Below are positions 1,666-55,700 of a DNA stretch of 64,000 nt, one piece after another. Location of the stretch: sequence record PZ534512.1; one strand, written 5' to 3'. The notes beneath the pieces are model-generated. The model had not been told where the DNA came from. It made no database searches and saw only the letters and a list, made by a program, of their open reading frames with translations. Within the stretch, counting starts at the first letter, position 1. Each line of letters opens with the position of its first letter. The translations under genes and the position numbers were made by a program. Origin of the DNA: a phage.

Positions 1666-2331
1666 ATGTTCCATTACACTTATAAAATAACAAATAAAAT
1701 TAATAATAAAATCTATATAGGCGCTCATTCTACCGAAAATTTAGATGATGGATATATGGGTTCTGGTAAATTATTAAAAAGAGCCCAAGACAAGTATGGT
1801 ATAGAAAATTTCTCTAAAGAAATATTAGAGTTCTTTGACGATAAAACCTCTATGTTTGAGTCAGAAAAGAATATTGTGACTGAAGAGTTTTTAAAGCGCC
1901 CTGACGTTTATAATTTGAAATTAGGTGGTGAAGGTGGTTGGGACCATTTAAACACTGAAGAATATTTGGATAAAAAGAAAGAAGCTTCCTTAAAAGGAGT
2001 TGCCGCTTTTAAAACCAGATTTGAGAACGACCCAGACCTTAAAGAAAAATATCGTAAAATGGGTTCAGAAAGGTTTAAACAGCTTTGGGATAATCCTAAG
2101 TATAGAGAGAAATTTTTAAATACTAAATCTTTCTTGGGTAAGACCCATACTCCTGAAACTATTAATAAAATGAAAGAATCTCACGCCAGAAATAAACACC
2201 AACAGGGCGAAAAGAATTCCCAATTTGGTATGATGTGGATTCATTCATTAGATGAAAAAGTTTCTAAACGTATTAAGAAAACTGACCCAATTCCAGAAGG
2301 ATGGTTTAAAGGTCGAAAAATGAAATTTTAA
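1666..2331 (+). CDS. segB: GIY-YIG homing endonuclease SegB
   Basis: 221 aa, YTYKITN..KIYIG motif, GGEGG; lies inside the tRNA cluster as in T4. Confidence 0.8.
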   Translation: MFHYTYKITNKINNKIYIGAHSTENLDDGYMGSGKLLKRAQDKYGIENFSKEILEFFDDKTSMFESEKNIVTEEFLKRPDVYNLKLGGEGGWDHLNTEEYLDKKKEASLKGVAAFKTRFENDPDLKEKYRKMGSERFKQLWDNPKYREKFLNTKSFLGKTHTPETINKMKESHARNKHQQGEKNSQFGMMWIHSLDEKVSKRIKKTDPIPEGWFKGRKMKF

Positions 2332-3782: not shown

Positions 3783-3850
3783 TTGTGTACAAACACCAAG
3801 GATGGTGTTATTATAGACTTATCAAAACAAATACAGAAACGGAGAAATAA

Positions 3851-4059: not shown

Positions 4060-4395
4060 ATGAAACGTAACTTTAGTAAAGCTTTTTGTAATAGAAATGA
4101 TTATCCTGAAGAGCTTTTTGAATCTAAGGAATTTAAAGAGTTTAACGAACGTTCTCAAAACATGCCTGTACAGTGGGTATTGGATTATGCTAACCGTATC
4201 TTTGAAGGCGTACGTTTCGTTGGCCCCGATGATGAAGCTCCTTATTTTAAAAAGGCTTGGGAACTCGCCAACCAAGCATATATCAATGCTTTAGAATCTT
4301 CTAAAGGTACTGACGATGATTTTATTTTATTGGCTATCAATGATGCCGTTGTCGAGGCCATCGACGCCTTTATCGACGAGCTAGACGAAGAATAA
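4060..4395 (+). CDS. acidic hypothetical protein (111 aa)
   Basis: AGGAAAA RBS; coding-like composition. Confidence 0.5.
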   Translation: MKRNFSKAFCNRNDYPEELFESKEFKEFNERSQNMPVQWVLDYANRIFEGVRFVGPDDEAPYFKKAWELANQAYINALESSKGTDDDFILLAINDAVVEAIDAFIDELDEE

Positions 4396-4452
4396 GTTTA
4401 CAATCTATTAGAAACGTGATATTATCTAATTATACAAACCTAAGGAAATACT

Positions 4453-5046
4453 ATGAACACACTGAAGAAAATTGTTGAGTTTATTCGCACTAAACTTGGT
4501 TCTGCTATGGCTAAAAATCTATCTGTTGAAGAACAGTATACTGCTGCGGCAGCAAAACTACTTGATAAGATTAAAGATCTAAAAACTGCTTCTGTTAAAT
4601 CTATTAATGAAGAAAAGCGTATTCGTGAACTTATTGTCGAAAAGAATAAGCAGGCCGAATCAAAAGAGCGTGAAATTCGCAAGCTTCTTTCGGAAGGTCA
4701 AGATGTAACAATGCATGCTAAACTTGGTTTACTATATCGTCGAACAGCTGAGCAGTTGACTACTAAAGCTGATGGTTATGCTGAAATGCGAATTGAAATC
4801 GCCAAGAAAGTAGTTGAATTGGATGATGCTCGCCAAGAACTTGCAGTTAAATTGGAATATATCCGTGAAACTCGTGCAGCAAATGCCCTTGGAATTAGTA
4901 CTGCTGATGATGTAGTTGAAATTGCAGCACTGACTAAGGTTGATATTGAAGATACTCTTGCTCGAGTTGAAACCTTTAATGGCAATATTTCTGGGGTTGA
5001 AACTACCTCTGCCGATGTTCAGGAATATATTAATTCTCTGAAATAA
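4453..5046 (+). CDS. coiled-coil hypothetical protein (197 aa)
   Basis: AAGGAAATA RBS; followed by UUCG hairpin at 5052-5067. Confidence 0.55.
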
Positions 5047-18707: not shown

Positions 18708-19676
18708 ATGAAAACTGTAACTATCAATAAGGGTATCTACTTCGGTAAAGAAATCTCTGGAACTTTTGAGCTCTTAGGCGAATGGTTCCCAGATAATGCT
18801 CCGGTAGATGCACAAGGAGATGGTAAAGTTTTTGTTGAAATTGACGGTAAGCGTCGCGGTGTTTGGGTTTACAAATCAGACATTTCATATGATGGTGTAA
18901 AAGTTGAAGAAGTTAAAGAATCATATGAAGATATGAAAACCCGCATTAATAAAAGATTTAATGTTATGGGAATGATGACGAATGGTATTATTAACGGAAA
19001 CATTCGTTCATTAATTATCTCTGGTGCGGCGGGTATTGGTAAAACGTATTCTTTAGATAAAGCTTTAAATAAAGCAAATGATATTGGATACATTGAATAT
19101 AAAAGCATTAATGGTAAAATCTCTGGTATTGGTCTTTATGAACAGCTTTGGAATAATCGTGAAGAGAATTCTGTCCTTTTGATTGATGATGTGGATGTTT
19201 TCTCTGATATGGACATTCTTAATCTTCTGAAAGCTGCTCTGGACACTGGAGAGACCCGTAAAGTCTGCTGGAGCACTGCGTCTTCTTACTTAGAAGAAAA
19301 AGGCATTGAGCGTGAGTTTGAATTTAAAGGAACGATTGTTTTTATCACAAACGTTGACATTGACCGCGAATTAGACCGTGGTACTAAACTTGCTCCACAT
19401 TTACAAGCATTAGTGTCCCGCTCAGTTTATTTGGATTTGGGTGTTCACACTAATGAAGAAATTATGGTCAGGGTTGAAGATGTTATTCTTTCAACTGACA
19501 TGATGCAAAAGCGCGGTCTTTCTGATGAAGAAACTTATAAAGCATTATCATGGATGAAAGTCAATGTTAATCGTTTACGCAATGTTTCACTGCGTACTGC
19601 TCTTTATCTTGCTGACTTTATTATGACAGACAAAAACGGTTGGGAAGAAATTGCTGAAACGGTATTATTAAAATGA
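18708..19676 (+). CDS. AAA-type ATPase (322 aa; T4 nrdC.10 position)
   Basis: Walker A GAAGIGKT, Walker B LLIDDVD; GGAGAATAAA RBS. Confidence 0.65.
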   Translation: MKTVTINKGIYFGKEISGTFELLGEWFPDNAPVDAQGDGKVFVEIDGKRRGVWVYKSDISYDGVKVEEVKESYEDMKTRINKRFNVMGMMTNGIINGNIRSLIISGAAGIGKTYSLDKALNKANDIGYIEYKSINGKISGIGLYEQLWNNREENSVLLIDDVDVFSDMDILNLLKAALDTGETRKVCWSTASSYLEEKGIEREFEFKGTIVFITNVDIDRELDRGTKLAPHLQALVSRSVYLDLGVHTNEEIMVRVEDVILSTDMMQKRGLSDEETYKALSWMKVNVNRLRNVSLRTALYLADFIMTDKNGWEEIAETVLLK

Positions 19677-20392
19677 AAAAATATTTTACTATCTATAAAA
19701 CTGAAATATTAAATTTAAAGACAGGTATTAAGAAATACTATTATGGTCGACATATAACTAATAACATCAATGATTCGTATGTTGGTAGTGGAAATTATAT
19801 AGAACGTGTAAAAGTGTCAAATGACCACATATTATCAAAAACGGTTTTAGAAGTTTTTGATAATTATGATAAAATGGTACAAGCTGAAATATTATATATC
19901 ATGGCAGGTAAATTGAAATATGGAAAAAACTGTGTTAACCTGTCATACGGGGGTGAAGGAGGAAAGGTTGCAGATGAAACTAGGATAAAATGCAAAAAGC
20001 ATTCTATAAATTTATGGAAAAATCCTAATCATATACAGCATATGAAGAAAAAGATGAAAGAGGTCACATCCACGCCGGAAGCTAAATTAAACACTTCAAT
20101 AAAAACTTCGCAACGATATAAGGACCCAGTTTTTGTTAGAAAAGTTAGTAATATTATTAAAAAGAAACTAAGCAATCCTGTAGTAAAAGAAAAGCATATT
20201 AATGGAATTAAAGCTGCAAAGCGTTCTCATTTAACTATATGGCAATATGAAGATGAATTATTCGAGCTTTGGAAAGAAACTAAATATGGATGGAGAAAAT
20301 TTACAAAGGAAGCTATAAAACACGGGTATCCAAATGAACCGTATCGTAGTATGGTATCAACCTTTCAGAAAAGACATTTAGAAGAATCCTAA
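19673..20392 (+). CDS. GIY-YIG homing endonuclease (Seg-like)
   Basis: TIYKTE...KYYYGRH and SYGGEGG motifs shared with SegB; AT-rich codon usage. Confidence 0.6.
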   Translation: MKKYFTIYKTEILNLKTGIKKYYYGRHITNNINDSYVGSGNYIERVKVSNDHILSKTVLEVFDNYDKMVQAEILYIMAGKLKYGKNCVNLSYGGEGGKVADETRIKCKKHSINLWKNPNHIQHMKKKMKEVTSTPEAKLNTSIKTSQRYKDPVFVRKVSNIIKKKLSNPVVKEKHINGIKAAKRSHLTIWQYEDELFELWKETKYGWRKFTKEAIKHGYPNEPYRSMVSTFQKRHLEES

Positions 20393-35161: not shown

Positions 35162-36364
35162 ATGAAAGTATGTATTTTTATGGCTCGAGGTCTTGAAGGT
35201 TGTGGTGTAACTAAATTTTCTCTTGAGCAACGTGATTGGTTTATTAAGAATGGTCATGAAGTAACTTTGGTTTATGCTAAAGATAAATCATTTACTCGTA
35301 ATTGCGCGCATGATTATAAATCATTTTCAATTCCGGTTTTATTGGCAAAAGAATATGATAAAACACTTAAGCTGGTAAATGATTGTGATATTCTAATTAT
35401 CAATTCAGTTCCTGCTACTTCGGTTGAAGAAGACACTATTAATAACTATAAAAAAATTATTGATAACATTAAACCTTCTGTTCGTGTTGTAGTTTATCAA
35501 CATGACCATTCTTCTCTTTCTTTGCGCCGAAATTTGGGATTAGAAGAAACTGTTCGTCGAGCTGATGTTATTTTTAGCCATTCTGATAATGGTGATTTTA
35601 ATAAAGTTCTGATGAAAGAATGGTATCCTGAAACAGTTTCTCTGTTTGATGATATTGAAGAAGCACCGACAGTATATAACTTTCAGCCTCCTATGGATAT
35701 TGCGAAGGTTCGGTCAACCTACTGGAAAGATGTTTCTGAAATTAACATGAATATCAATCGTTGGATTGGTCGTACGACTACATGGAAAGGTTTTTATCAG
35801 ATGTTTGATTTTCATGAAAAACATCTTAAACCTGCAGGACTAAGTACTATTATGGAAGGTCTGGAACGTTCTCCAGCGTTCATTCCTATTAAAGAAAAAG
35901 GAATTCCATACGAGTATTATCGTCTTCATCAAGTAGACCAAATTAAAATTGCTCCTAATTTGCCAACGCAAATTCTTGACCGTTATGTAAATAGCGAAAT
36001 GCTTGAACGTATGAGTAAATCCGGATTTGGTTATCAGTTGAGTAAGTTGGATAAAAAATATCTACAGCGCTCTTTAGAATATACTCATCTCGAGCTTGGT
36101 GCATGTGGAACAATTCCGGTATTTTGGAAATCTACTGGCGAAAATTTAAAATTCCGTGTTGATAATACTCCTTTGACCTCGCATGATAGCGGTATCATTT
36201 GGTTTGATGAAAATGATATGGAATCAACATTTGAACGTATTAAAGAACTGTCATCTGACCGAGCTCTTTATGACCGTGAGCGTGAAAAAGCATATGAATT
36301 TTTGTATCAGCATCAAGATTCAAGCTTCTGCTTTAAAGAACAGTTTGACATTATTACAAAATAA
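35162..36364 (+). CDS. agt: DNA alpha-glucosyltransferase
   Basis: 400 aa; close match to T4 a-gt as I recall it. Confidence 0.9.
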   Translation: MKVCIFMARGLEGCGVTKFSLEQRDWFIKNGHEVTLVYAKDKSFTRNCAHDYKSFSIPVLLAKEYDKTLKLVNDCDILIINSVPATSVEEDTINNYKKIIDNIKPSVRVVVYQHDHSSLSLRRNLGLEETVRRADVIFSHSDNGDFNKVLMKEWYPETVSLFDDIEEAPTVYNFQPPMDIAKVRSTYWKDVSEINMNINRWIGRTTTWKGFYQMFDFHEKHLKPAGLSTIMEGLERSPAFIPIKEKGIPYEYYRLHQVDQIKIAPNLPTQILDRYVNSEMLERMSKSGFGYQLSKLDKKYLQRSLEYTHLELGACGTIPVFWKSTGENLKFRVDNTPLTSHDSGIIWFDENDMESTFERIKELSSDRALYDREREKAYEFLYQHQDSSFCFKEQFDIITK

Positions 36365-43344: not shown

Positions 43345-46041
43345 ATGAAAGAATTTTATATCTCTATTGAAACAGTCGGAAATAATATTGTTGAACGTTA
43401 TATTGATGAAAATGGAAAGGAACGTACTCGTGAAGTAGAATATCTTCCAACTATGTTTAGGCATTGTAAGGAAGAGTCAAAGTACAAAGACATCTATGGT
43501 AAAAACTGCGCTCCTCAAAAATTTCCATCAATGAAAGATGCTCGAGATTGGATGAAACGAATGGAAGACATCGGTCTCGAAGCTCTCGGTATGAACGATT
43601 TTAAACTCGCTTATATCAGTGATACATACGGTTCAGAAATTGTTTATGACCGAAAATTTGTTCGTGTAGCTAACTGTGACATTGAGGTTACTGGTGATAA
43701 ATTTCCTGACCCAATGAAAGCTGAATATGAAATTGATGCTATCACTCATTACGATTCAATTGACGATCGTTTTTATGTTTTCGACCTTTTGAATTCAATG
43801 TACGGTTCAGTATCAAAATGGGATGCAAAGTTAGCTGCTAAGCTTGACTGTGAAGGTGGTGATGAAGTTCCTCAAGAAATTCTTGACCGAGTAATTTATA
43901 TGCCATTTGATAATGAGCGTGATATGCTCATGGAATATATTAATCTCTGGGAACAGAAACGACCTGCTATTTTTACTGGTTGGAATATTGAGGGGTTTGA
44001 CGTTCCATATATTATGAATCGCGTTAAAATGATTCTGGGTGAACGCAGTATGAAACGCTTCTCTCCAATCGGTCGAGTAAAATCTAAACTAATTCAAAAT
44101 ATGTACGGCAGCAAAGAAATTTATTCTATTGATGGTGTATCTATTCTTGATTATTTAGATTTGTACAAGAAATTTGCTTTTACTAATTTGCCGTCATTCT
44201 CTTTGGAATCAGTTGCTCAACATGAAACCAAAAAAGGTAAATTACCATACGACGGTCCTATTAATAAACTTCGTGAGACTAATCATCAACGATACATTAG
44301 TTATAACATCATTGACGTAGAATCAGTTCAAGCAATTGATAAAATTCGCGGGTTTATCGATCTAGTTTTAAGTATGTCTTATTACGCTAAAATGCCTTTT
44401 TCTGGTGTAATGAGTCCTATTAAAACTTGGGATGCTATTATTTTTAACTCATTGAAAGGTGAACACAAGGTTATTCCTCAACAAGGTTCGCACGTTAAAC
44501 AAAGTTTTCCGGGTGCATTTGTATTTGAACCTAAACCAATTGCTCGTCGATATATTATGAGTTTTGACTTGACGTCTCTGTATCCGAGCATTATTCGTCA
44601 GGTTAACATTAGTCCTGAGACTATTCGTGGTCAGTTTAAAGTTCATCCAATTCATGAATATATCGCAGGAACAGCTCCTAAACCGAGTGATGAATATTCT
44701 TGTTCTCCGAATGGATGGATGTATGATAAGCATCAAGAAGGTATCATTCCAAAGGAAATCGCTAAAGTATTTTTCCAGCGTAAAGATTGGAAAAAGAAAA
44801 TGTTCGCTGAAGAAATGAATGCCGAAGCTATTAAAAAGATTATTATGAAAGGCGTAGGGTCTTGTTCAACTAAACCTGAAGTTGAACGATATGTTAAGTT
44901 CAGTGATGATTTCTTAAATGAACTATCGAATTATACTGAATCTGTTCTCAATAGTTTGATTGAAGAATGTGAAAAAGCGGCTACACTTGCTAATACAAAT
45001 CAGCTGAACCGTAAAATTCTTATTAACAGCCTTTACGGTGCTCTTGGTAATATTCATTTCCGTTACTATGATTTGCGAAATGCTACTGCTATCACAATTT
45101 TCGGCCAAGTTGGTATTCAGTGGATTGCTCGTAAAATTAATGAATATCTGAATAAAGTATGCGGAACTAATGGCGAAGATTTCATTGCAGCAGGTGATAC
45201 TGATTCGGTATATGTTTGTGTAGATAAAGTTATTGAAAAAGTTGGTCTTGACCGATTCAAAGAGCAGAACGATTTAGTTGAATTCATGAATCAGTTCGGT
45301 AAGAAAAAGATGGAACCTATGATTGATGTTGCATATCGTGAGTTATGTGATTATATGAATAACCGCGAGCATCTGATGCATATGGACCGTGAAGCTATTT
45401 CTTGCCCTCCACTTGGTTCAAAGGGCGTTGGTGGATTTTGGAAAGCGAAAAAGCGTTATGCTCTGAACGTATATGATATGGAAGATAAGCGATTTGCTGA
45501 ACCGCATCTAAAAATCATGGGTATGGAAACTCAGCAGAGTTCAACACCAAAAGCAGTGCAAGAAGCTCTCGAAGAAAGTATTCGTCGTATTCTTCAGGAA
45601 GGTGAAGAGTCTGTCCAAGAATATTACAAGAACTTCGAGAAAGAATATCGTCAACTTGACTATAAAGTTATTGCTGAAGTAAAAACTGCGAACGATATAG
45701 CGAAATATGACGATAAAGGTTGGCCAGGATTTAAATGTCCGTTCCATATTCGTGGTGTGCTAACTTATCGTCGAGCTGTTAGCGGTTTAGGTGTAGCTCC
45801 AATTTTGGATGGAAATAAAGTAATGGTTCTTCCATTACGTGAAGGAAATCCATTTGGTGACAAGTGCATTGCTTGGCCGTCGGGCACAGAACTTCCAAAA
45901 GAAATTCGTTCTGATGTACTGTCTTGGATTGACTACTCAACTTTGTTCCAAAAATCGTTTGTTAAACCGCTTGCGGGTATGTGTGAATCGGCTGGTATGG
46001 ACTATGAAGAAAAAGCTTCGTTAGACTTCCTGTTTGGCTGA
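43345..46041 (+). CDS. 43: DNA polymerase gp43 (family B, 3'-5' exonuclease)
   Basis: 898 aa; exo motifs; polymerase motifs DxxSLYPS and YGDTDS. Confidence 0.97.
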   Translation: MKEFYISIETVGNNIVERYIDENGKERTREVEYLPTMFRHCKEESKYKDIYGKNCAPQKFPSMKDARDWMKRMEDIGLEALGMNDFKLAYISDTYGSEIVYDRKFVRVANCDIEVTGDKFPDPMKAEYEIDAITHYDSIDDRFYVFDLLNSMYGSVSKWDAKLAAKLDCEGGDEVPQEILDRVIYMPFDNERDMLMEYINLWEQKRPAIFTGWNIEGFDVPYIMNRVKMILGERSMKRFSPIGRVKSKLIQNMYGSKEIYSIDGVSILDYLDLYKKFAFTNLPSFSLESVAQHETKKGKLPYDGPINKLRETNHQRYISYNIIDVESVQAIDKIRGFIDLVLSMSYYAKMPFSGVMSPIKTWDAIIFNSLKGEHKVIPQQGSHVKQSFPGAFVFEPKPIARRYIMSFDLTSLYPSIIRQVNISPETIRGQFKVHPIHEYIAGTAPKPSDEYSCSPNGWMYDKHQEGIIPKEIAKVFFQRKDWKKKMFAEEMNAEAIKKIIMKGVGSCSTKPEVERYVKFSDDFLNELSNYTESVLNSLIEECEKAATLANTNQLNRKILINSLYGALGNIHFRYYDLRNATAITIFGQVGIQWIARKINEYLNKVCGTNGEDFIAAGDTDSVYVCVDKVIEKVGLDRFKEQNDLVEFMNQFGKKKMEPMIDVAYRELCDYMNNREHLMHMDREAISCPPLGSKGVGGFWKAKKRYALNVYDMEDKRFAEPHLKIMGMETQQSSTPKAVQEALEESIRRILQEGEESVQEYYKNFEKEYRQLDYKVIAEVKTANDIAKYDDKGWPGFKCPFHIRGVLTYRRAVSGLGVAPILDGNKVMVLPLREGNPFGDKCIAWPSGTELPKEIRSDVLSWIDYSTLFQKSFVKPLAGMCESAGMDYEEKASLDFLFG

Positions 46042-46054
46042 TAGAATAAATCTA

Positions 46055-46075
46055 GGGACCTCCGGGTCCCTTTTT
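46055..46075 (+). terminator. hairpin terminator
   Basis: gggacc-tccg-ggtccc then ttttt. Confidence 0.75.
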
Positions 46076-46158
46076 CATACAAGTAATATAAATCTATACT
46101 TATGAAAAACAGATGATTCTGGACCTTTAGAATTCCCTAAAAAATTTTTCACAAAACT

Positions 46159-46188
46159 GTTTACAAGACTGTTCCTCTGTGGTACTAT
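46159..46188 (+). promoter_or_regulatory. T4-type early promoter with conserved leader
   Basis: aaaatttttcacaaaactGTTTAC-N18-TACTAT then acaactatcaactactgatacag. Confidence 0.7.
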
Positions 46189-46225
46189 ACAACTATCAAC
46201 TACTGATACAGATTTGGAGAATAAA

Positions 46226-46462
46226 ATGAAAATTGTTATGGGATGCTTAGCAATTTGTTTAGTTGCATTAGCAGCAGTTCCATTTGTTAGTGTTGAAAAT
46301 GATACTCAACCTGTGATTGAATCTAGCACCGTTATTCACACTAATGGTAAAATATCAGTTAAAATTGATGATAATCTTCATGTGAATACAAATGGATCTT
46401 TAGGTGTGCAAATGGGTAATACCTGCATAAGCACTACTGGAGTAATTACTACTTGCATTTGA
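46226..46462 (+). CDS. secreted/membrane small protein (78 aa)
   Basis: ORF-track start is TTG; ATG 46226 has GGAGAATAAA RBS; signal-like N-terminus. Confidence 0.5.
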   Translation: MKIVMGCLAICLVALAAVPFVSVENDTQPVIESSTVIHTNGKISVKIDDNLHVNTNGSLGVQMGNTCISTTGVITTCI

Positions 46463-46472
46463 GGAAATTATT

Positions 46473-46853
46473 ATGAAAATCGCTATTTTGGTTATTGCAT
46501 TAGGTCTTACTGGTTGTGTAGCTCAAGGACCGGTAGTAAATCAGTCTGATGTAGGAAAAATTGTAAACTGTTCAAGCAAATTTTATAATCCTAATGTCAA
46601 GTGTTATAAAGAAGCTCCAAAGCAAACAGTCGAACAAATGCAGGCGAATTTTGACGAAGCTATTCGTCCAGATGAATCTGCTCAAGCATATCGTAATTCT
46701 GATGTAATTACACGCGAAGAAAAAATTGAAAACTACTGCGCCGAAATTTGGGCTAATTGGGCTAATAATTACCAATGGCGTACTGGTAAAAATGCTCCGA
46801 TGGAGTATGTAGTGAATTCTTATAATTCATGTGTAAAAAATTTGACTAAGTGA
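46473..46853 (+). CDS. lipoprotein (126 aa)
   Basis: lipobox LTGC after signal peptide. Confidence 0.55.
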   Translation: MKIAILVIALGLTGCVAQGPVVNQSDVGKIVNCSSKFYNPNVKCYKEAPKQTVEQMQANFDEAIRPDESAQAYRNSDVITREEKIENYCAEIWANWANNYQWRTGKNAPMEYVVNSYNSCVKNLTK

Positions 46854-46860
46854 GGAAAAC

Positions 46861-47112
46861 ATGGAAACTTTAGTAGCAGGTTCAATTTTTATGGTTTTAG
46901 TTTCAGGCGTGTTGGCTATTATTATATACATGCTTCCATGGTTTATCGCCTTGATGCGTGGGTCAAAATCGACAGTAGGAATCTTTTTCACATCTTTACT
47001 GTTTAACTGGTCAATTATTGGTTGGTTTATTACATTTATTTGGTCAATTGCGGGTGAAACTAAAAAGTCTGCACAACCAAATCAGGTAATTATCATCAGA
47101 GAGAAGGAATGA
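46861..47112 (+). CDS. imm: superinfection immunity protein Imm
   Basis: 83 aa, two TM helices, between 43 and 42 as in T4. Confidence 0.8.
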   Translation: METLVAGSIFMVLVSGVLAIIIYMLPWFIALMRGSKSTVGIFFTSLLFNWSIIGWFITFIWSIAGETKKSAQPNQVIIIREKE

Positions 47113-47258
47113 AAAGCAAAATTATAGCAGTGTTGCTTTTAATCTTGATGATTATAATAAGTATATACTATAGTGTAACGGTTCCTCTTATGATTCCAAC
47201 TATTATTTTAGGTTGGGGTTTATTACTGTTACAAGTTAAATATGAATGTATCAATTGA
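47109..47258 (+). CDS. 49-aa hydrophobic peptide
   Basis: ATGA overlap with imm stop; two hydrophobic stretches. Confidence 0.35.
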   Translation: MKSKIIAVLLLILMIIISIYYSVTVPLMIPTIILGWGLLLLQVKYECIN

Positions 47259-47265
47259 GGTTTAA

Positions 47266-48006
47266 ATGATTAGTGACTCTATGACAGTTGAAGAAATCCG
47301 TCTTCATTTGGGGCTTGCATTAAAAGAAAAAGATTTCGTAGTTGATAAAACCGGTGTTAAAACTATTGAAATTATTGGCGCATCATTTGTAGCAGATGAA
47401 CCGTTTATTTTTGGCGCTCTTAATGATGAATACATTCAGCGTGAACTTGAATGGTATAAATCTAAGAGCTTGTTTGTTAAAGATATTCCAGGTGAAACAC
47501 CAAAGATTTGGCAGCAGGTAGCATCTTCTAAAGGCGAAATTAACTCGAATTATGGTTGGGCTATTTGGTCAGAAGATAACTATGCCCAGTATGATATGTG
47601 TTTAGCTGAACTTGGTCAAAATCCTGATTCTCGACGTGGTATCATGATTTATACTCGTCCATCTATGCAGTTTGACTATAATAAAGATGGTATGTCAGAT
47701 TTCATGTGTACGAATACCGTACAGTATCTGATTCGTGACAAGAAAGTCAATGCAGTAGTAAGCATGCGCTCAAATGACGTGGTCTTCGGATTCCGTAATG
47801 ATTATGCATGGCAAAAATACGTATTAGATAAATTAGTATCTGATTTGAATGCAGGCGATTCAACTCGTCAGTATAAAGCAGGTTCTATTATATGGAATGT
47901 TGGAAGTCTTCATGTATATTCTCGTCATTTTTACTTGGTTGATCATTGGTGGAATACTGGCGAAACTCATATTGTGAAAAAAGATTATAACGGTGAGTGG
48001 AAATGA
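47266..48006 (+). CDS. 42: dCMP hydroxymethylase gp42
   Basis: 246 aa; thymidylate-synthase-like fold motifs. Confidence 0.93.
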   Translation: MISDSMTVEEIRLHLGLALKEKDFVVDKTGVKTIEIIGASFVADEPFIFGALNDEYIQRELEWYKSKSLFVKDIPGETPKIWQQVASSKGEINSNYGWAIWSEDNYAQYDMCLAELGQNPDSRRGIMIYTRPSMQFDYNKDGMSDFMCTNTVQYLIRDKKVNAVVSMRSNDVVFGFRNDYAWQKYVLDKLVSDLNAGDSTRQYKAGSIIWNVGSLHVYSRHFYLVDHWWNTGETHIVKKDYNGEWK

Positions 48007-48845
48007 TTCAATTCGTAATTCCGAGCTATCAACGTGTAGGGGCAGTTTCTGCCCTTGATATGTTTCCGACTGATTATGAACCTCATATCGTAGTACGTGA
48101 ACATGAAGAAAAAGCTTATTATGACGCCTATGGGTCTAGAGCTAAAATTATAACTATTCCTGATGATGTAAACGGAATTGCCGGTACTCGTAAAGCAATT
48201 ACTGATATGTATGCAGGTCAACGAATCTGGATGATTGACGATGATACTACTATTCGTATGAGTTCAATGCGAAAAAGAGATGATCGTCGTTGCGTAGATA
48301 AAGTCAATCAATTGACTCGTGAACAGTTCTATGAATTGATTCAATATGTTGAGGATGCCATGGATTGTGGGTATTATCATGGCCATGCTCGTCTACCTAT
48401 TTTTAAAATTACTTCATCTTGGGGTAATTATCGTGAAAATTCATATGGATTCACGAATACATGGTATGACCTTGGAAAACTTACTACAGAACAAATTGGG
48501 TATGGAAAAATTGATTTATGCGAAGATATGTATGCATTTCTCAATTTAATTAATCAAGGTTATCCGCATTTGGCCTTGTTCAAATATCTGGTTGTATCTG
48601 GAAAAGCACAAGCTCCTGGCGGGTGCAGTTCAATTCGTAGTAATTCTAAACATAATAGAGCGCTTGAGCAAATCAATATAGAGTTTCCAGAGCAAGCTCG
48701 TTGGAAAACTTCTAATATTGAAAAACGAAAATCGTTGGGTGAAGAAGACGAGCCATTAAAGGTTCTTCGCATGTGTGTTTCGCGCAAAGAAAAATCAGAA
48801 GCATTTCATAAGTTTAATGCTATTCATCCGATAGCAGTTGATTAA
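48003..48845 (+). CDS. GT-A fold glycosyltransferase (DxD), candidate second-glucose (beta-alpha) glucosyltransferase
   Basis: 280 aa; WMIDDDTT DxD motif; occupies the T4 beta-gt locus but is unlike T4 beta-gt. Confidence 0.55.
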   Translation: MIQFVIPSYQRVGAVSALDMFPTDYEPHIVVREHEEKAYYDAYGSRAKIITIPDDVNGIAGTRKAITDMYAGQRIWMIDDDTTIRMSSMRKRDDRRCVDKVNQLTREQFYELIQYVEDAMDCGYYHGHARLPIFKITSSWGNYRENSYGFTNTWYDLGKLTTEQIGYGKIDLCEDMYAFLNLINQGYPHLALFKYLVVSGKAQAPGGCSSIRSNSKHNRALEQINIEFPEQARWKTSNIEKRKSLGEEDEPLKVLRMCVSRKEKSEAFHKFNAIHPIAVD

Positions 48846-48923
48846 TGCCTAAATTTATTGTGTTATAATTACTCTATCTTTAACCAGTGAGGAAAATATA
48901 ATGATGCCTATGGAAAAAAATGA

Positions 48924-50105
48924 ATGTCTATTGCAGATTTAAAATCCCGTTTGATTAAAGCTTCCACTTCTAAAATGACTGCTGAACTGACTACATCTAA
49001 GTTCTTTAATGAAAAGGATGTAATCCGTACAAAAATCCCAATGCTTAATATTGCTATTTCTGGTGCGATTGATGGCGGTATGCAGTCTGGTTTAACTATT
49101 TTCGCAGGGCCTTCTAAACACTTTAAATCAAATATGTCTTTGACTATGGTTGCGGCATATTTGAACAAATATCCTGACGCGGTTTGTCTATTCTATGATA
49201 GCGAATTTGGTATTACTCCAGCTTATTTGCGATCCATGGGAGTTGACCCGGAACGAGTAATTCATACGCCAATCCAGTCAGTTGAACAGCTGAAAATTGA
49301 TATGGTGAACCAGCTTGAAGCTATTGAGCGCGGTGAAAAGGTTATTGTATTCATCGACTCAATTGGTAATATGGCTTCTAAGAAAGAAACGGAAGACGCC
49401 TTGAATGAAAAATCTGTGGCAGATATGACTCGTGCTAAATCACTGAAGTCATTATTCCGTATTGTTACTCCTTATTTTAGCATTAAAAATATTCCATGTG
49501 TTGCGGTTAACCATACAATTGAAACAATTGAAATGTTTAGTAAAACCGTGATGACAGGTGGTACAGGCGTAATGTATTCGGCTGATACTGTATTCATTAT
49601 CGGTAAACGTCAGATTAAAGATGGTTCTGATCTTCAAGGGTATCAATTTGTTCTAAATGTAGAAAAATCTCGTACCGTTAAAGAAAAAAGTAAATTCTTT
49701 ATTGATGTTAAATTTGACGGTGGTATCGATCCTTATTCTGGATTGTTAGATATGGCTCTAGAATTAGGATTTGTAGTAAAACCTAAGAATGGTTGGTATG
49801 CTCGTGAATTTCTTGACGAAGAAACCGGCGAGATGATTCGCGAAGAAAAATCTTGGCGTGCAAAAGATACCAACTGCACTACATTCTGGGGTCCTTTATT
49901 TAAGCATCAACCATTCCGAGATGCTATTAAACGTGCTTATCAGTTAGGTGCTATTGATAGTAATGAAATTGTTGAAGCTGAAGTTGATGAATTGATTAAC
50001 TCAAAGGTTGAAAAATTTAAATCTCCAGAAAGTAAAAGTAAATCAGCTGCTGATTTAGAAACTGACCTCGAACAGTTAAGTGATATGGAAGAATTTAATG
50101 AATAA
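48924..50105 (+). CDS. uvsX: RecA-like recombinase UvsX
   Basis: 393 aa; Walker A GPSKHFKS; near-identical to T4 UvsX as I recall it. Confidence 0.95.
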   Translation: MSIADLKSRLIKASTSKMTAELTTSKFFNEKDVIRTKIPMLNIAISGAIDGGMQSGLTIFAGPSKHFKSNMSLTMVAAYLNKYPDAVCLFYDSEFGITPAYLRSMGVDPERVIHTPIQSVEQLKIDMVNQLEAIERGEKVIVFIDSIGNMASKKETEDALNEKSVADMTRAKSLKSLFRIVTPYFSIKNIPCVAVNHTIETIEMFSKTVMTGGTGVMYSADTVFIIGKRQIKDGSDLQGYQFVLNVEKSRTVKEKSKFFIDVKFDGGIDPYSGLLDMALELGFVVKPKNGWYAREFLDEETGEMIREEKSWRAKDTNCTTFWGPLFKHQPFRDAIKRAYQLGAIDSNEIVEAEVDELINSKVEKFKSPESKSKSAADLETDLEQLSDMEEFNE

Positions 50106-50442
50106 AGATGATTTAGATTTAGATCTAGAAATTATCGATGAATCCCCCTCTTCGGAGGGGGAAGAAGAAAGAAAAAAACGTCTTTTTAATGAGTCTCTTA
50201 AGATAATTAAATCTGCTATGGAAAATGTTATCCAGGAGATTGTCATTAAACTAGAAGATGGTTCTACGCATATAGTGTATGTAACTAAACTGGATTGGGT
50301 TGATGGAAAGGTTGTAATGGACTTTGCTGTTCTTGACCAAGAAAGAAAAGCTGAGTTAGCTCCTCATGTAGAAAAATGTATTACAATGCAACTGCAAGAT
50401 GCATTTAATAAAAGGTCAAAGAAAAAATTTAAATTCTTTTAA
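50080..50442 (+). CDS. 40: gp40-position protein (120 aa)
   Basis: between uvsX and 41 as in T4; acidic N-terminus. Confidence 0.6.
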   Translation: MIWKNLMNKDDLDLDLEIIDESPSSEGEEERKKRLFNESLKIIKSAMENVIQEIVIKLEDGSTHIVYVTKLDWVDGKVVMDFAVLDQERKAELAPHVEKCITMQLQDAFNKRSKKKFKFF

Positions 50443-53884: not shown

Positions 53885-54913
53885 ATGTCATCAATACCTT
53901 GGATTGATAATGAGTTTGCGTATCGTGCATTGGCTCATTTACCTAAATTCACACAAGTAAATAATAGTTCAACTTTTAAATTACGGTTTAGATGCCCTGT
54001 TTGCGGAGATTCAAAAACCGACCAAAATAAAGCCCGTGGATGGTATTATGGTGATAATAATGAAGGAAATATTCATTGTTATAACTGTAACTATCATGCA
54101 CCAATCGGAATATATTTAAAGGAGTTTGAACCTGATTTATATCGTGAGTATATCTTTGAAATAAGAAAAGAAAAAGGTAAAAGTCGTCCAGTAGAAAAAC
54201 CTAAAGAACTTCCTAAACAACCTGAGAAGAAAATAATTAAATCTCTTCCGTCATGTGTTAGATTAGATAAACTGGCGGAAGACCATCCAATTATAAAATA
54301 TGTAAAAGCTCGTTGTATTCCAAAGGATAAATGGAAATATCTTTGGTTTACAACCGAATGGCCTAAATTAGTTAATAGCATAGCACCGGGAACATATAAA
54401 AAGGAAATACCTGAGCCTCGTCTTGTTATTCCAATTTATAATGCTAATGGAAAAGCTGAGTCTTTTCAAGGACGTGCATTAAAGAAAGATGCTCCCCAAA
54501 AATATATCACTATCAAAGCTTATCCTGAAGCAACAAAAATCTATGGAGTCGAACGAGTTAAAGATGGTGATGTATATGTTCTAGAAGGACCTATAGATTC
54601 ACTTTTTATTGAAAATGGTATAGCTATTACAGGTGGTCAATTAGACCTAGAAGTTGTTCCATTTAAAGATAGACGTGTGTGGGTTTTAGATAATGAACCT
54701 CGTCACCCTGACACTATTAAACGAATGACTAAATTAGTTGATGCAGGAGAAAGGGTTATGTTTTGGGATAAATCTCCCTGGAAATCAAAAGATGTTAATG
54801 ATATGATTAGAAAGGAAGGTGCAACCCCTGAACAAATTATGGAATATATGAAAAATAATATTGCCCAGGGGTTGATGGCTAAAATGCGGCTATCTAAATA
54901 TGCTAAGATTTAA
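53885..54913 (+). CDS. 61: DNA primase gp61
   Basis: 342 aa; N-terminal zinc ribbon CPVCGDS...CYNC; TOPRIM region. Confidence 0.93.
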   Translation: MSSIPWIDNEFAYRALAHLPKFTQVNNSSTFKLRFRCPVCGDSKTDQNKARGWYYGDNNEGNIHCYNCNYHAPIGIYLKEFEPDLYREYIFEIRKEKGKSRPVEKPKELPKQPEKKIIKSLPSCVRLDKLAEDHPIIKYVKARCIPKDKWKYLWFTTEWPKLVNSIAPGTYKKEIPEPRLVIPIYNANGKAESFQGRALKKDAPQKYITIKAYPEATKIYGVERVKDGDVYVLEGPIDSLFIENGIAITGGQLDLEVVPFKDRRVWVLDNEPRHPDTIKRMTKLVDAGERVMFWDKSPWKSKDVNDMIRKEGATPEQIMEYMKNNIAQGLMAKMRLSKYAKI

Positions 54914-55110
54914 ATTAACCCAACTAAAGCAAATGCTAAATCTACGAATGTATCAAGAGTAACTACTGGAATATTAATACCATGTGCAATTGCAACAGGT
55001 GATAAAATAAAGTTCCAGAGTAAAATTCCTACCATAGCAGAAATAGTAAAAGCTATACGCTTTTTATTACCTTTTATGGCATTAATAAGTGCCATTAATT
55101 TTTGTACCAT
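54910..55110 (-). CDS. antisense small membrane protein (66 aa)
   Basis: only intergenic minus-strand ORF; AAGGAGG 4 nt upstream of ATG; two hydrophobic helices; stop overlaps gene 61 stop. Confidence 0.5.
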   Translation of the reverse strand: MVQKLMALINAIKGNKKRIAFTISAMVGILLWNFILSPVAIAHGINIPVVTLDTFVDLAFALVGLI

Positions 55111-55122
55111 ATGTCCTCCTTA

Positions 55123-55147
55123 TTGCTTTATATATTTATTGTATAAT
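55123..55147 (+). promoter_or_regulatory. MotA-dependent middle promoter candidate for gene 56
   Basis: MotA box TTGCTTTA, 11 nt spacer, -10 TATAAT. Confidence 0.55.
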
Positions 55148-55181
55148 TAATCTACTAACCCATGAATTGAAAGGAAAAATA

Positions 55182-55700
55182 ATGGCTTACTTTAATGAAT
55201 GTAGTCAACTGATTGAAGGCGCTGATAAAGCTCAAAATGAATACTGGGATATTCTCGGTGATGAAAAAGACCCGCTGCAAGTTATGCTTGATATGCAGAA
55301 ATCTCTGCAGGTTCGTTTAGCTAAAGATAAACCTGAATATAATCGTCATCCTGATGACTTGGCTACTGCAGGCGAAGTTGTTGATTGGCTGCGCAATCAG
55401 AAAGATTATATTGATGATGAATTCCGCGAACTTCTGACTTCTCTTGGTGGTATGAGCAATGGCGAAAAAGATGCGTCTGCTGTATGGAAACCTTGGAAGT
55501 CACAGCATGGTGAACGCCGTGAAACTTTAATTACTGATTTGTCTCCACAAGACCAGTTGGAAATTAAATTCGAAATGATTGATATTCTTCATTTCGTTCT
55601 GAACATGTTCCAAGGTCTCGGTCTTACGGCTGAAGAAATCTTTAAACTTTATTATCTGAAAAATGCTGAAAATTTCGCTCGTCAAGACCGAGGTTATTAA
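55182..55700 (+). CDS. 56: dCTP pyrophosphatase gp56 (MazG-like)
   Basis: 172 aa from MAYFNECSQ; AAGGAAAAATA RBS. Confidence 0.85.
   Translation: MAYFNECSQLIEGADKAQNEYWDILGDEKDPLQVMLDMQKSLQVRLAKDKPEYNRHPDDLATAGEVVDWLRNQKDYIDDEFRELLTSLGGMSNGEKDASAVWKPWKSQHGERRETLITDLSPQDQLEIKFEMIDILHFVLNMFQGLGLTAEEIFKLYYLKNAENFARQDRGY

Follow-up and report, generated by a model that had tools for sequence, protein, structure and literature searches.

The gene between gene 42 and uvsX of a Tequatrovirus very probably encodes a T2/T6-type beta-glucosyl-HMC-alpha-glucosyltransferase

We analyzed a 64,000-nucleotide stretch of phage DNA (sequence record PZ534512.1; hereafter, the window) and found on its plus strand a coding sequence at 48003..48845, which we call ba-gt. 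It starts with an ATG at 48003, ends with a TAA at 48843-48845, and encodes 280 amino acids. A preliminary interpretation of this DNA (the sequence-only reading) had placed a 280-aa protein with the DxD motif WMIDDDTT between gene 42 and uvsX, and the ORF map agrees with it in both coordinates and description; the motif lies at residues 76-83 (codons 48228-48251). The mechanical ORF list places the start two codons upstream, at the GTG at 47997, but the ATG is the start in all annotated relatives. The upstream neighbor, gene 42 (47266..48006, plus strand), encodes dCMP hydroxymethylase, a member of the thymidylate synthase family (PF00303, E 1.1e-15), and its location is syntenic with that of gene 42 in T4, T2, and T6. 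The ba-gt ATG (48003-48005) overlaps the gene 42 TGA (48004-48006) in an ATGA at 48003..48006. The same 4-nt overlap is annotated in T2, T6, EH2, Solly, and EL, and it suggests that translation of the two genes may be coupled. The downstream neighbor is uvsX (48924..50105). The annotations of T2, T6, EH2, Solly, and EL have ba-gt in this same slot, whereas the gene 42-uvsX interval of T4 carries beta-gt (351 aa) and the homing endonuclease gene segA.

Only 78 nt (48846-48923) separate ba-gt from uvsX, at the place where T4 has the GIY-YIG homing endonuclease gene segA. There are SegA-like ORFs in other parts of the window, one at 1666..2331 with 54% identity over 90 aa and one at 19673..20392 with 25% identity. 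A scan of 46000-50200 gave no excess over shuffled sequence of either promoter-like sites (21 versus 17.3 +/- 4.0) or terminator-like sites (4 versus 1.8 +/- 1.4), and thus we make no regulatory claim for the 78-nt gap. Approximately 30 to 60 nt inside the ba-gt coding region, there is a stable hairpin at 48031-48064 with a GC-rich stem (GGGGCAG/CUGCCC), the 91-nt context of which folds at -24.7 kcal/mol (z = -2.2 versus shuffles). Upstream of gene 42, a hydrophobic 49-aa ORF lies at 47109-47258, next to imm (46861..47112); T2, EH2, Solly, and EL have this ORF in their annotations, whereas the T4 RefSeq annotation of that interval lacks it.

Other genes for cytosine modification are present in the window. 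The alpha-gt gene, which encodes a DNA alpha-glucosyltransferase of 400 aa, is located at 35162..36364 on the plus strand and is intact, as had been claimed: its product aligns with T4 alpha-gt over the full 400 aa at 92% identity and without gaps, and its match to PF11440 has an E value of 1.8e-237. By tblastn, neither a homologue of the T4-type beta-gt nor a second alpha-gt was found in the 64-kb window. Gene 56, encoding dCTPase, was located by tblastn with EL gp56 (71% identity over 172 aa) at 55182..55700 on the plus strand, with an approximate start. Between the primase gene 61 (53885..54913) and gene 56, i.e., at 54913-55182, dam is absent, and no homologue of this DNA adenine methyltransferase gene was found anywhere in the window; in T4 and phage EL, dam occupies this position. 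The window also lacks segF, which in T4 is located between 56 and soc.

The ba-gt protein is 100% identical to that of phage teqskov, 99% identical to that of T6, and identical to that of T2 at 277 of 280 positions, so that the alignment to the T2/T6 enzyme, proposed earlier as a check, came out in favor of orthology. It matches PHROG 842 (beta-glucosyl-HMC-alpha-glucosyltransferase) over residues 1-275 with an E value of 2.1e-88. It also matches PF20691 (TET-associated glycosyltransferase, TAGT) with 38.9 bits and an E value of 1.2e-9, residues 3-207 covering profile positions 2-205 of 205; this score clears the Pfam gathering threshold of 27.5 bits. No NCBIfam model exists for the protein. 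On the other hand, a BLASTP comparison with T4 beta-gt gave only noise (best E 0.56), and PF09198 had no match at E <= 1, whereas the T4 beta-gt control matched it at 9.4e-98. By neither sequence similarity nor profile match, then, does ba-gt belong to the T4 beta-gt family (PF09198, GT-B), and the earlier impression of no resemblance to T4 beta-gt held up. Full-length orthology to the T2/T6 enzymes, together with the intact alpha-gt and the absence of beta-gt in the window, supports the earlier reading of a T2/T6-like second-glucose enzyme. We place the probability at about 0.95 that 48003..48845 encodes the T2/T6-type beta-glucosyl-HMC-alpha-glucosyltransferase (ba-gt, ggt, TAGT), acting as the second-glucose enzyme. 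Beta-1,6 glucose transfer by the window's protein is a prediction supported by the literature on the near-identical proteins of T6, EH2, and Solly.

A sequence search of the PDB with ba-gt found no relative at E <= 1; therefore, the fold was taken from a model. The AlphaFold2 model, built from a shallow 10-sequence alignment, is of moderate confidence overall (mean pLDDT 69.6, pTM 0.72), with pLDDT values of 84-95 in residues 1-80 and below 50 in residues 126-151 and 203-211. It has a GT-A fold, i.e., a single Rossmann-like nucleotide-binding domain, and the nearest solved folds are those of cell-wall or polysaccharide GT-A enzymes (TarP, TarS, cellulose or hyaluronan synthases). Our model agrees with the AlphaFold3 model published for the T6 enzyme, which was placed among GT-A enzymes as a sister group of GT2 (PMC13216743). 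When 1.84 billion representative proteins were searched with a profile, 2137 clusters had E <= 1e-3, of which 734 reached E <= 1e-10. We examined residue conservation by aligning the window protein with 152 full-length family members (n = 153). The DxD motif, D79-D80-D81 (codons 48237..48245, plus strand), has Asp in 151, 153, and 146 of the 153 members, respectively. In GT-A enzymes the DxD is expected after a hydrophobic beta-strand, and W-M-I-D-D-D indeed follows the strand 74-77 in the model. Inverting GT-A enzymes usually have their catalytic base at a helix start, and the helix 174-184 begins with the "ED" motif, E174-D175 (codons 48522..48527, plus strand), with D175 being Asp in all 153 members and E174 being Glu in 121. 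R11 (codon 48033..48035, plus strand), in a PSYQR loop after strand beta-1, is Arg in 151 members, and the other two have gaps. Further near-invariant positions are G207 (153/153), G186 and G206 (152/153), R212 (150/153), and R63 (143/153), while position 226, an Ile in the window, is highly variable across the family.

By general GT-A precedent, D79-D80-D81 presumably hold a divalent metal and the UDP diphosphate, and ba-gt is expected to depend on such a metal. The fold class also makes D175, together with E174, the likely candidate for the catalytic base, and R11 a likely contact of the nucleotide, with the PSYQR loop resembling the GT2 nucleotide-binding loop. The literature describes UDP-alpha-glucose as the donor and a beta linkage in the product, which implies an inverting mechanism.

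The pathway is well established: gp42 forms hydroxymethyl-dCMP while gp56 clears dCTP, and hmC is incorporated by the polymerase. The alpha-gt then places an alpha-linked glucose on the hmC of newly replicated DNA, creating the acceptor for ba-gt, which in the window phage would move the glucose of UDP-glucose to the 6-OH of that first glucose in a beta linkage, yielding gentiobiosyl-hmC. [quoted passage not shown] The DNA of T6 without ba-gt bears only alpha-glucosyl-hmC, shows increased sensitivity to the Brig1 glycosylase, and is a substrate of the BapA deglucosylase (PMC11078745, PMC13160076). In the virion DNA of the window phage, we expect hmC, alpha-glucosyl-hmC, and gentiobiosyl-hmC to be present and beta-monoglucosyl-hmC to be absent.

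How much of each is a separate matter. The earlier prediction of a T2/T6-like pattern stands as far as the second glucose is concerned; as a single pattern, however, "T2/T6-like" does not, since it covers two very different compositions. T2 DNA has approximately 70% alpha-glucosyl- and 5% gentiobiosyl-hmC (PMC11078745, PMC6024577, PMC13160076), whereas T6 DNA has approximately 3% and 72%, respectively (PMC11078745, PMC13160076), with naked hmC at approximately 25% in both (PMC11078745, PMC13160076). The T2 gene is 99% identical to the window's and yet goes with approximately 5% gentiobiosylation; therefore, the presence of the gene does not tell how far the second glucosylation goes. Closer references are EH2 and Solly, Tequatroviruses of the Durham collection, whose ba-gt proteins are encoded in the same neighborhood and are identical to the window's at 279 of 280 positions, differing only at the variable position 226 (Arg there, Ile in the window). 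Their DNA, according to HPLC/MS, contains approximately one-third hmdC and two-thirds alpha-gentiobiosyl-mdC; alpha-glucosyl-mdC was present as a trace, and beta-glucosyl-mdC was not found (PMC13390438). The authors named the TAGT gene that is syntenic with T4 beta-gt as responsible for the second glucose (PMC13390438). According to them, the absence of dam marks the EH2/Solly group off from EL, BGP, and Geo, which have intermediate ratios (PMC13390438); like the window, the EH2/Solly group has no dam between genes 61 and 56.

On the premise that the gene is ba-gt, we infer that the window phage probably has a T6-like, mostly gentiobiosylated genome, because R11 and P251 are present, the protein is almost the same as in EH2 and Solly, and dam is absent between 61 and 56. 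The strongest competing possibility, which we consider unlikely, is that the orthologue makes only a small contribution, as in T2, leaving mostly alpha-monoglucosyl-hmC and a few percent of gentiobiosyl-hmC. The composition of T2, with its 99% identical gene, speaks for it (PMC11078745, PMC6024577), as does phage EL, whose ba-gt protein is 97% identical to the window's and whose ratio is an intermediate 1:2:2 (PMC13390438). However, the window protein carries neither of the T2-specific substitutions, R11H and P251S; it matches at 279 of 280 positions the enzymes of phages with approximately two-thirds gentiobiosylation (PMC13390438), I226 being at a variable position; and the window resembles EH2 and Solly in having no dam between 61 and 56.

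The T2 substitutions deserve a comment of their own. T2 is the only phage whose ba-gt has His at 11; it also has Ser at 251, and the window, T6, EH2, and Solly differ from T2 at both. Codon 11 is at 3834-3836 of the T2 stretch examined, equivalent to 48033-48035 in the window. All eight T2/SV76 records are identical in ba-gt, with R11H and P251S fixed, so these are true T2 alleles. Because R11 is invariant in the family, T2 ba-gt may be hypomorphic. We raise tentatively, as an idea with somewhat less than an even chance of being right, that R11H causes this and would explain the 60-year-old difference between T2 and T6 in gentiobiosylation (approximately 5% versus 72%); residue 11 would then predict the pattern, and the window phage, with Arg11, would be of the heavily di-glucosylated T6 type. 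Our literature search, which did not include the 1993 cloning paper, found no paper testing or proposing this explanation.

In a separate observation, the T6 RefSeq ba-gt (NC_054907/AP018814) lacks one Asp codon of the triplet (WMI-DDTT), its gene being 840 bp (4135-4974 of the stretch examined); the other T6 record, MH550421, has an 843-bp span, as do all other phages. This 3-nt loss in the GAC-GAT-GAT run is probably a stock-specific or sequencing indel. We considered the missing Asp as a cause of the T2/T6 difference and rejected it, because EH2 and Solly have a T6-like pattern despite DDD and the loss is confined to AP018814/NC_054907, with MH550421 keeping 843 bp.

A further possibility is that the enzyme of this phage transfers another sugar or acts on another acceptor (naked hmC or beta-glucosyl-hmC, for example). 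TAGT homologues of other genera occur paired with beta-gt or alone, with varied or relaxed acceptor specificity (PMC13216743), and beta-gt adjoins TAGT in CC31-, S16-, and G3F8-type phages. We nevertheless regard it as very improbable, since the window has no beta-gt and enzymes 98-100% identical to ba-gt come from phages having only alpha-glucosyl and gentiobiosyl products (PMC13390438). Least probable of all is a glycosyltransferase not acting on DNA, e.g., a modifier of host envelope polysaccharide or of protein: its nearest solved folds, those of TarP, TarS, and the cellulose and hyaluronan synthases, would suit such a role, but deletion of the near-identical T6 gene shifts gentiobiosyl-hmC to alpha-glucosyl-hmC (PMC11078745, PMC13160076), ba-gt adjoins gene 42 with overlapping start and stop, and the Pfam TAGT family is defined by its association with DNA-base-modifying enzymes.

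The T2/T6-type enzyme is widespread. In the phage collection, the 1.8-kb region matched 557 phage records, mostly at 95-99% DNA identity, in which the gene is widely annotated as beta-glucosyl-HMC-alpha-glucosyltransferase, beta-alpha-glucosyltransferase, or ggt. Homologues of the protein were found in 689 phage records, far beyond chance, with 472 at >= 95% protein identity, and T4 beta-gt had homologues in 126 records, reaching >= 90% in only 29. In a published survey, an alpha-gt or a beta-gt was accompanied by a TAGT in most phages (PMC13216743), and alpha-gt with beta-gt was found in only 6 of 753 genomes, those of T4 and its close relatives (PMC13216743). These counts and the survey indicate that ba-gt is the common Tequatrovirus state and T4 the exception. 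The sequence-only reading that a glycosyltransferase here "replaces" T4 beta-gt is thus correct only with T4 as the reference, ba-gt being the usual gene at this place. A beta-gt homologue 49-55% identical to that of T4 lies directly beside TAGT in some Tequatrovirus and related phages, namely MZ234036 (G3F8), MZ234043 (PM123), CC31, S16, and Melville, so that TAGT genes go together with either of the primary glucosyltransferases.

The ba-gt gene, its product, fold class, and distribution are all already published and are textbook biology; the T2-specific change at an invariant Arg is the sole mildly new item, and it concerns T2, not the window's gene. The assignment settles the annotation, making the window phage a T2/T6-type rather than a T4-type Tequatrovirus with respect to cytosine hypermodification, and this status predicts its behavior toward modification-sensing defenses. 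The second glucose shields DNA against defenses that recognize alpha-monoglucosyl-hmC: gentiobiosyl-hmC withstands the Brig1 glycosylase in vitro as well as the BapA deglucosylase (PMC11078745, PMC13160076, PMC13390438). Gentiobiosylated DNA is still a target of GmrSD/BrxU-type enzymes, and unglucosylated hmC is open to Brig3-like glycosylases (PMC11078745, PMC13160076, PMC13390438). The assignment should be of use in choosing phages or interpreting host ranges.

Among known systems, T2 ba-gt is likewise 280 aa long and shares with the window's the position between gene 42 and uvsX, the ATGA overlap, the pairing with alpha-gt, and the DDD and ED motifs, differing by three substitutions (in the window, R11 not H, I226 not R, and P251 not S). 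T6 ba-gt shares the position, overlap, and pairing as well as the ED and R11 motifs, and its RefSeq version shows five differences from the window's: Y40N, D55G, R106H, I226R, and the one extra Asp of the window's protein. None of these T2 or T6 substitutions suggests a new function. The GT2-type inverting GT-A enzymes (TarP, 6h1j; TarS, 5tze; AvpGT, 9jma) resemble ba-gt in their Rossmann-like GT-A fold, in having a DxD that follows the fourth strand, and in having an acidic residue where a helix starts. T4 beta-gt (PF09198, PDB 1JG7) also follows gene 42, uses UDP-glucose as the donor, forms a beta linkage, and has phage hmC DNA as its substrate. However, it has a GT-B fold as opposed to the GT-A fold of ba-gt (a difference also noted in PMC13216743), and it glucosylates naked hmC to a monoglucoside, whereas the acceptor of ba-gt is the glucose of alpha-glucosyl-hmC.
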